Below, in pieces: positions 28,501 through 29,756 of a DNA stretch of 64,000 bases. The stretch lies in NCBI RefSeq assembly GCF_002854065.1, contig NZ_CP024147.1, one strand, 5' to 3'. Positions within the stretch are counted from its first letter, which is position 1; every line of letters starts with the position of its first letter. Made by a program: the position numbers. Source of the DNA: Escherichia coli. Lineage in GTDB: Bacteria; Pseudomonadota; Gammaproteobacteria; Enterobacterales; Enterobacteriaceae.

Positions 28501-29756
28501 TCGGCAATTTCCGGCAGAACCCAGACGTTAACTTCGTCGATTAATGCCCGATAACCAAAGAAGTCGTCGAATGCCTGAATTTTCAGTTGATTGCTGCTGT
28601 TGCGGATCACCGCATACGGACCAGTGCCGATGGGATGGCTGGCAAAGTTACTGAGGGTTTCCCATTCGCGCGGCAGGATCATCGCCGGAACTTGCCCCAG
28701 CAGTAATGGCAACCAGCGGTCCGGCTGCGTGAGATGGATATCCAGCGTCCAGGGCGTCGGTGACAAAATATCAGCAATGTGGGAATAGAGCGGCAGCGTG
28801 TTGATCCGTTTCAAAGAGGCGATCACGTCGTCCATTTCCAGTTCACGACCATGATGAAAATGGACTCCTGGTCGCAAAAAGAAGCGCCAGTGAAGCGGTG
28901 AAATTTGCTGCCAGTGGTGGGCGATGTCCGCCTCCAGTTCCCCATTTTCCTCATTTACGCGCGTTAGCGAACTGAAGATTTGTCGGGCGATATGGGTTTC
29001 TGAACGGCGTAATGCGCTACCCGGTAGTAAGTTACGCAACGGACGATAGTAGAGCACACGCAAAATATGCCGCCCTTGACGAAATGAGCGCCCCAGATGG
29101 GAAACCAGCATTTGCCGCACAGCCGCTTTATCGCCAACTAACTGCACCAGTTGGTCTATATGGTCCTGCTCAAGTAAATCTTCCGCGCGTTGTTGCTGGA
29201 GCGCCAGCCCGGTATAGAGGAACGTCAGGCGTGAACGTTTACCACGCCCAACTTCCGCTTCCCATGTCAACCAGCCGCGCTCCTGCATGGTGTTGAGCAG
29301 GGTGCGCATATGACGACGCGAGCAGCTCAATAACGCTGCCAGTTCGTTGAGCGTTGTGTCCTGCGATTTACCCTCGCAGCATTGCCACAGGCGGATGAAC
29401 TGTTGTTGCAGACGAGCAGATGGCATAAAAGGGGAACTCCTGCGCAAAAGACAGCAATTTTATTTTCCCTATATTAAGTCAATAATTCCTAACGATGAAG
29501 CAAGGAGGTGCCCCATGCGTCAGTTTTATCAGCACTATTTTACCGCGACAGCGAAGTTGTGCTGGTTGCGTTGGTTAAGCGTCCCACAACGATTAACCAT
29601 GCTTGAAGAACTGATGCAGTGGGAGGGGAGTCATTCTGACTACTGATTTGCGGACATCATGTGTGACTGAGTATTGGTGTTAATCGCCACGCCAGCAGTG
29701 ATTATCTGCTGGCTTTTTTCTTTTTGGCGATTGAGTACCGGACGGTGTACAAACTA

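Follow-up and report, generated by a model that had tools for sequence, protein, structure and literature searches.

The 64,000-nucleotide stretch of Escherichia coli DNA analyzed here (hereafter the window, to which coordinates refer unless otherwise stated) carries the SgrR/SgrS/SgrT glucose-phosphate stress module directly adjacent to leuD with no setA gene between them, and represents the CFT073/O157-type setA-less haplotype rather than the K-12-type sgrS-setA operon. Taken jointly, the evidence favors, with a probability of about 0.9, a natural setA-less haplotype that would trace back to one old deletion in Escherichia, with setA-bearing and setA-less haplotypes recombining, the SgrR-SgrS-SgrT system intact and no setA elsewhere in the genome. 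The setA-less junction is an ordinary, already-described gene-content polymorphism found in about 40% of complete E. coli genomes; the initial annotation, which treated the absence of setA as unusual, thus overrated it. The lack of setA outside the A/B1 sublineage is already published and can also be seen in reference genomes released many years ago, and the discovery value of the junction is small.

Over 20 kb the window matches both E. coli CUWW06 (NZ_CP182139.1; from wastewater in Thailand) and strain 100416 at 100% identity, and the RefSeq annotation of the identical CUWW06 sequence records sgrR, sgrT and leuD with no gene in between. The features that define the junction are:

29721..29753, no strand assigned: sgrS-leuD spacer, the junction of the setA-less haplotype (alignment with both K-12 flanks)
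29754..30359, minus strand: leuD, last gene of leuABCD, converging on sgrS (201-aa ORF and annotation)

The 33 nt between the end of the SgrS Rfam match and the leuD stop codon (TAG, or CTA on the plus strand, at 29754-29756) are too short for a coding sequence of 392 aa, and a tblastn search of the 64-kb window with K-12 SetA recovered no SetA-like sequence, the best match being noise (E = 3). These results bear out the initial claim that no room for setA is left between sgrS and leuD. The K-12 gene order on which that claim relied is also right: in MG1655 sgrR (75644-77299, minus strand) is followed by sgrS (77367-77593, plus strand) with sgrT, by setA (77621-78799, plus strand) and by leuD (78848-79453, minus strand). 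The spacer of the window stands where K-12 has 1254 bp (77594-78847) that hold setA, its leader and the intergenic hairpin between setA and leuD; the setA coding sequence that lies directly 3' of the sgrS terminator in the K-12-type operon is missing, and no IS element, repeat or scar was found at the junction. The LeuD protein of the window matches that of K-12 at 100% over residues 1-200, and its last codon, CGT (Arg), is the one found in Salmonella and Citrobacter, as against AAT (Asn) in K-12.

Upstream of this junction the following elements of the module are recognizable:

27768..29426, minus strand: sgrR, transcriptional activator of sgrS, intact, 552 aa (ORF and RefSeq annotation of CUWW06)
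29494..29720, plus strand: sgrS small RNA, full length, CFT073/O157-type allele (Rfam RF00534)
29515..29646, plus strand: sgrT, intact ORF for the 43-aa PtsG inhibitor inside the 5' part of sgrS, with an ATG start and an AGGAGG Shine-Dalgarno sequence
29661..29679, plus strand: conserved SgrS base-pairing core GTGTGACTGAGTATTGGTG, identical in K-12
29691..29725, plus strand: sgrS intrinsic terminator with an 8-bp stem (6 G-C pairs), a 7-nt loop and the tract TTTTTTCTTTTT (terminator scan)

The regulator SgrR, which is transcribed divergently from sgrS, shows 98% amino acid identity to its K-12 counterpart over residues 1-551 (tblastn), and the Pfam domains SgrR_N and SBP_bac_5 are recorded for a protein identical to it. 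The exact SgrR protein of the window occurs in 294 blocks of public assemblies and, among the matches listed, lies beside sgrT and leuD without setA. The match of SgrS to RF00534 spans model positions 1-232 of 232 with a score of 230.7 bits (gathering score 37; E 7e-65), and the translation of sgrT, MRQFYQHYFTATAKLCWLRWLSVPQRLTMLEELMQWEGSHSDY, is annotated as SgrT with PF15894 recorded. The base-pairing core had exact matches in 110 Enterobacteriaceae genomes. The terminator consists of the hairpin GCCAGCAG-TGATTAT-CTGCTGGC at 29691-29713 followed by the T-rich tract up to 29725, with a computed RNA folding energy of -16.8 kcal/mol versus -13.2 for K-12; the ptsG-pairing core is thus accompanied by an intrinsic terminator with a long U-tract, which is the predicted Hfq site. 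The window locus is therefore a member of the SgrR/SgrS/SgrT module in which every sequence-level defining feature is present, with sgrR, sgrS and its promoter region, sgrT, the base-pairing core and the U-tract terminator all intact.

The absence of setA is linked to a distinct allele of the neighboring small RNA. The sgrS promoter and the 5' part of sgrS are 99% identical to K-12, and the two haplotypes part from about position 29605 onward:

29605..29980, no strand assigned, approximate extent: tract highly diverged from the K-12 haplotype, running from mid-sgrT across the junction into the leuD 3' end (sliding identity)

In a sliding comparison, identity to K-12 stays at 98-100% as far as about 29586, drops to 72-86% at 29587-29711, and is 88% in the 3' end of leuD at 29757-29806, 96-98% at 29782-29881 and 86-90% at 29882-29981, beyond which it returns to 98-100%. 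This tract travels with the presence or absence of setA. Without its invariant core the 3' part of sgrS is 72% identical to K-12, a depth otherwise seen between genera, and 100% identical to O157:H7 Sakai. SgrT has a different C-terminus (MRQ...MLEELMQWEGSHSDY in the window versus ...MLEGLMQWDDRNSES in K-12), the differences being at position 32 (E versus G) and in the last seven residues (EGSHSDY versus DDRNSES). Two SgrS alleles that are 88% identical, one of the K-12 type and one of the CFT073/O157 type, have been described in E. coli (Horler and Vanderpool 2009, PMC2760817), and by sequence comparison sgrS/sgrT of the window corresponds to the latter. Ahead of the sgrT start, at 29505-29515, the window has AAGGAGGTGCCCCATG and K-12 AAGGGGGTGCCCCATG, which amounts to AGGAGG versus GGGGG. 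In K-12 the GGGGG forms an allele-specific stem that occludes the sgrT ribosome-binding site and inhibits sgrT translation (PMC2760817); the AGGAGG of the window is predicted to weaken or abolish this stem and at the same time to create a consensus Shine-Dalgarno sequence, and SgrT may on these grounds be better translated from the window allele than from that of K-12.

To place the two arrangements in a wider context, the exact 19-nt SgrS core was used to scan Enterobacteriaceae with one genome per species, yielding 110 loci that were typed by tblastn with K-12 SgrR, SetA and LeuD; since neither E. fergusonii nor E. marmotae is among them, this survey does not fix the state at the base of Escherichia. 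Across these loci, which represent some 30 genera, setA directly follows sgrS wherever the downstream sequence sufficed, including in Citrobacter, Salmonella, Enterobacter, Klebsiella, Raoultella, Leclercia, Lelliottia, Cedecea, Atlantibacter, Trabulsiella, Mangrovibacter, Siccibacter, Shimwellia and others. The only exceptions belong to Escherichia, namely E. albertii, E. whittamii, Escherichia sp. E1V33 and the divergent 'E. coli' SCPM-O-B-8794, in which, as in the window, leuD lies at about +100 nt after sgrS. All setA-less Escherichia sequences have the spacer TTTTTGGCGATTGAG(T/TAC)CGGACGG(T/C)GTACAAACTAACGCAT in common; spacer and sgrS 3' end of the window are together 100% identical to Sakai and 95-96% identical to the four exceptions, placing the window in the setA-less Escherichia haplotype typified by CFT073 and O157:H7. 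The setA gene of K-12 is 77-80% identical in nucleotide sequence to those of other genera (up to about 82% over partial genes), and the flanking genes give mostly 74-81% for sgrR and mostly 80-84% for leuD. A recent origin of K-12 setA from any sampled genus was consequently rejected, and the intergeneric identity so similar to that of sgrR and leuD argues that it is a gene of the Escherichia lineage. In the setA-bearing Escherichia sp. MOD1-EC7003 the block formed by the sgrS 3' part and the setA 5' part is 98.9-100% identical to K-12 while sgrR is only 91.9% identical, which points to an exchange of this block between the two lineages. Two outgroup loci show peculiarities of their own: the setA of Trabulsiella odontotermitis strain 01 (+91 to +1153 from the SgrS core) matches in two pieces, covering SetA residues 1-86 and 115-392, and may be disrupted, and the SetA match of Citrobacter amalonaticus begins only at residue 26.

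The initial annotation had also proposed comparing the junction among E. coli strains. A 601-bp junction query finds a contiguous match in 2159 of 5426 complete genomes, and 3243 others match it at 90-95%, split into sgrR-sgrS and leuD pieces. K-12 setA DNA is found in 3241 of the 5426, and these together with the 2159 setA-less junctions account, to within one genome, for the 5399 that have the locus. That the missing gene reflects a recent strain-specific deletion or an assembly error is suggested by nothing more than its bare absence, and is the least credible of all the explanations weighed here: the same contiguous junction in so many complete genomes, from many hosts and countries, shows that it is no assembly artefact, the four other Escherichia lineages share it, it bears no IS element, repeat or scar, and the sgrS allele beside it is the long-known CFT073/O157 type. 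A relocation of setA, with SetA retained, gains some plausibility from the fact that the window covers just 64 kb of a 4.65-Mb genome, and the initial annotation had itself named a copy elsewhere as a possible refutation. A sensitive search for setA, however, returned as the best match per record either at least 95% identity (3240 records; setA with its canonical annotation) or a partial match of 60-80% annotated as setB (2182 records), with none between. The complementary counts and this two-class distribution of identities indicate that setA is either at the locus or absent, and has not moved, so that relocation is very improbable. The lack of an orthologue elsewhere is in this sense a population-level result; for CUWW06 it rests on these counts and identities, and the two other SET genes located there are setB, beside fruBKA, and setC, beside yicL, both at their usual positions and encoding proteins with 52% and 47% amino acid identity to SetA, respectively. 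Among reference strains, O157:H7 Sakai passes from sgrR (ECs_0074) to leuD (ECs_0075) without setA, and CFT073, IHE3034 and O157:H7 OK1 likewise lack it.

In the history that we favor, Enterobacteriaceae ancestrally had the order sgrS-setA-leuD, and an early lineage of Escherichia would have lost about 1.25 kb in one deletion that took out setA together with its leader and the greater part of the region between setA and leuD, leaving sgrS and leuD convergent and 33 bp apart. We infer a single event, given that the same spacer in all setA-less Escherichia is better explained by one old deletion than by repeated loss; a deletion shared by several species in turn needs either a very old polymorphism or interspecies transfer. 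Its end-points cannot be mapped, and the junction is approximate: between genera the setA-leuD intergenic region varies too much to be aligned, and the 33-bp spacer, when compared with the intergenic regions of K-12 and the outgroups, only faintly resembles the right arm of the hairpin in K-12. The setA-less allele is carried by E. albertii, E. whittamii, other non-coli Escherichia and the setA-less E. coli, including members of B2 (CFT073, IHE3034) and E (O157:H7), whereas setA-bearing loci occur in E. coli of the K-12-like (A/B1) kind and in one or more further lineages of Escherichia. The two haplotypes, deeply different in the sgrS 3' third and the SgrT C-terminus, would be swapped by homologous recombination. 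The setA gene has previously been reported as specific to the A/B1 sublineage and read as a gain by it (González-Alba et al. 2019, PMC6896753). Accordingly phrased for this locus, that interpretation holds that the setA-less order is native to E. coli and that A/B1 gained setA with the sgrS 3' end by homologous replacement from another Escherichia lineage, and we give it slightly less than an even chance. The occurrence of the setA-less allele in B2, E and several sister species agrees with it, as do the 72% identity of the sgrS 3' parts of the two haplotypes and the block shared by K-12 and MOD1-EC7003 despite an 8% difference in sgrR, which is the signature of a recent exchange. Against it stand the position of setA beside sgrS, clearly ancestral at the family level, and the fact that none of the sampled genera is closer to K-12 in setA than in the flanking core genes, from which it follows that there was no outside donor and that setA must have persisted within Escherichia. 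The gain by A/B1 moreover bears on no more than the polarity inside E. coli, could go together with an older deletion and leaves the content of the window unchanged.

Since setA beside sgrS is ancestral for the family, its 'acquisition' in E. coli would be at most a re-acquisition or a retention, a nuance that is modest and unproven. A more far-reaching proposal, which we regard as rather doubtful, is that the presence or absence of setA is one face of an old trans-species dimorphism in Escherichia. The two haplotypes differ at intergeneric depth and both occur in more than one Escherichia species, which suggests long-term maintenance or repeated introgression of one form combining an SgrT variant with SetA and another combining a different SgrT variant with the lack of SetA. 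If true, this would supersede the simpler view that A/B1 gained setA. The locus could also illustrate, on a small scale, how a gene can seem 'acquired' in a species and yet be ancestral for its family.

Functionally, the initial annotation had proposed that the glucose-phosphate stress response of this strain relies on SgrS and SgrT without SetA. This follows from the gene content, qualified by the presence of SetB and SetC and by the modest role of SetA in K-12: the response would run via base-pairing of SgrS with its targets and via SgrT, without an SgrR-driven sgrS-setA read-through transcript. The setA-less haplotype would have no SgrR-controlled efflux pump, the paralogues setB and setC remaining, and any read-through from sgrS would run antisense into leuD. 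The co-transcription of sgrS and setA in K-12, which was also part of the initial claim, holds by way of terminator read-through: according to Morita et al. 2015 (PMC4509938), who cite Sun and Vanderpool 2011 for the co-transcription, setA is expressed by reading through the sgrS terminator, in only a few per cent of transcripts under stress. SetA aids recovery in some stress conditions and does not export alpha-methylglucoside, its role being modest and its mechanism unsettled even in K-12 (PMC4021124). Two further ideas found no support. A terminator strength that tracks setA read-through was not supported by any correlation, as the setA-bearing Salmonella and Citrobacter also have an 8-bp stem closed by G-C; and the notion that the loss of the setA-leuD hairpin left leuABCD without a terminator, and hence transcribed antisense into sgrS, was dropped as non-discriminating, as a simple scan found no minus-strand terminator 3' of leuD in the window or in K-12. 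The K-12 sgrS-setA operon is thus not the norm of the species, SetA being absent from a large fraction of complete genomes that includes the main extraintestinal and enterohaemorrhagic reference strains, and the contribution of SetA, terminator read-through and weak SgrT translation known from K-12 should not be transferred untested to setA-less strains.

Several other features of the window deserve mention. The sgrR gene contains a rare diverged tract at 28392-29304, densest at 28960-29290; a 331-bp segment of it is at least 99% identical in 2 of 5399 complete E. coli genomes (CUWW06 and 100416), 90-95% identical in one and 80-90% (typically about 87%) identical in the rest. No sampled Escherichia or other genus exceeded 87% as a closer relative, and the differences fall mostly at third codon positions, with the protein retaining its high identity to K-12. 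The tract resembles DNA imported by recombination from an unsampled lineage. Only 35 bp separate the thiBPQ TPP riboswitch from the sgrR stop in K-12; in the window, where these lie at 25851-25950 and 27768, about 1.8 kb of additional DNA is found between them, with espY2 at the same place in Sakai in the absence of the IS1. Annotation records the following features here and elsewhere in the window:

413-963: CcdA/CcdB-family toxin-antitoxin pair between folA and apaH
9075-9958: espY1 (T3SS effector) and a frameshifted transposase fragment between djlA and rluA
26192..26761, plus strand: espY2, a type III effector-like gene
26931..27628, minus strand: IS1 element

Rfam matches were also obtained in housekeeping DNA at 56128-56217, 61864-61933 and 62337-62646. 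They comprise 'PssrA' (the name of an sRNA encoded by a Shigella plasmid) where ftsA meets ftsZ, STnc40 on the secA 3' end and mutT start, and three tandem naRNA4 (REP-type) copies between mutT and yacG, respectively.

Of the SET family, SetA, SetB and SetC (Liu et al. 1999), CUWW06 retains setB and setC and is missing the SgrR-controlled SetA. We know of no link of SetB or SetC to control by SgrR. The K-12 sgrR-sgrS/sgrT-setA locus (Vanderpool and Gottesman 2004; Sun and Vanderpool 2011) resembles that of the window in its divergent sgrR, in an sgrS promoter region and 5' two-thirds of sgrS that are 99-100% identical, in an identical core, in the 43-aa sgrT, in a Rho-independent terminator with a long U-tract and in its position between thiBPQ and leuABCD. 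It differs in that the window has no setA, and hence no sgrS-setA read-through operon, and in that the terminator stem closes with G-C in the window and with G-U in K-12. With respect to the CFT073 and O157:H7 Sakai loci (PMC2760817), the window differs from both by its IS1 beside espY2 and the rare diverged tract in sgrR, and from CFT073 by the IS200C transposase gene which the latter has in the sgrS-leuD spacer (2078-2536 of the CFT073 locus, equivalent to about 29721-29753 of the window); in O157:H7 the sgrT start codon is mutated (PMC2760817), whereas the window has ATG. These differences notwithstanding, the window shares with CFT073 and Sakai the setA-less order, its SgrT protein is identical to that of CFT073 (both WP_001248768.1), and as in Sakai 327 bp separate the sgrR start from the leuD stop and espY2 lies upstream of sgrR.
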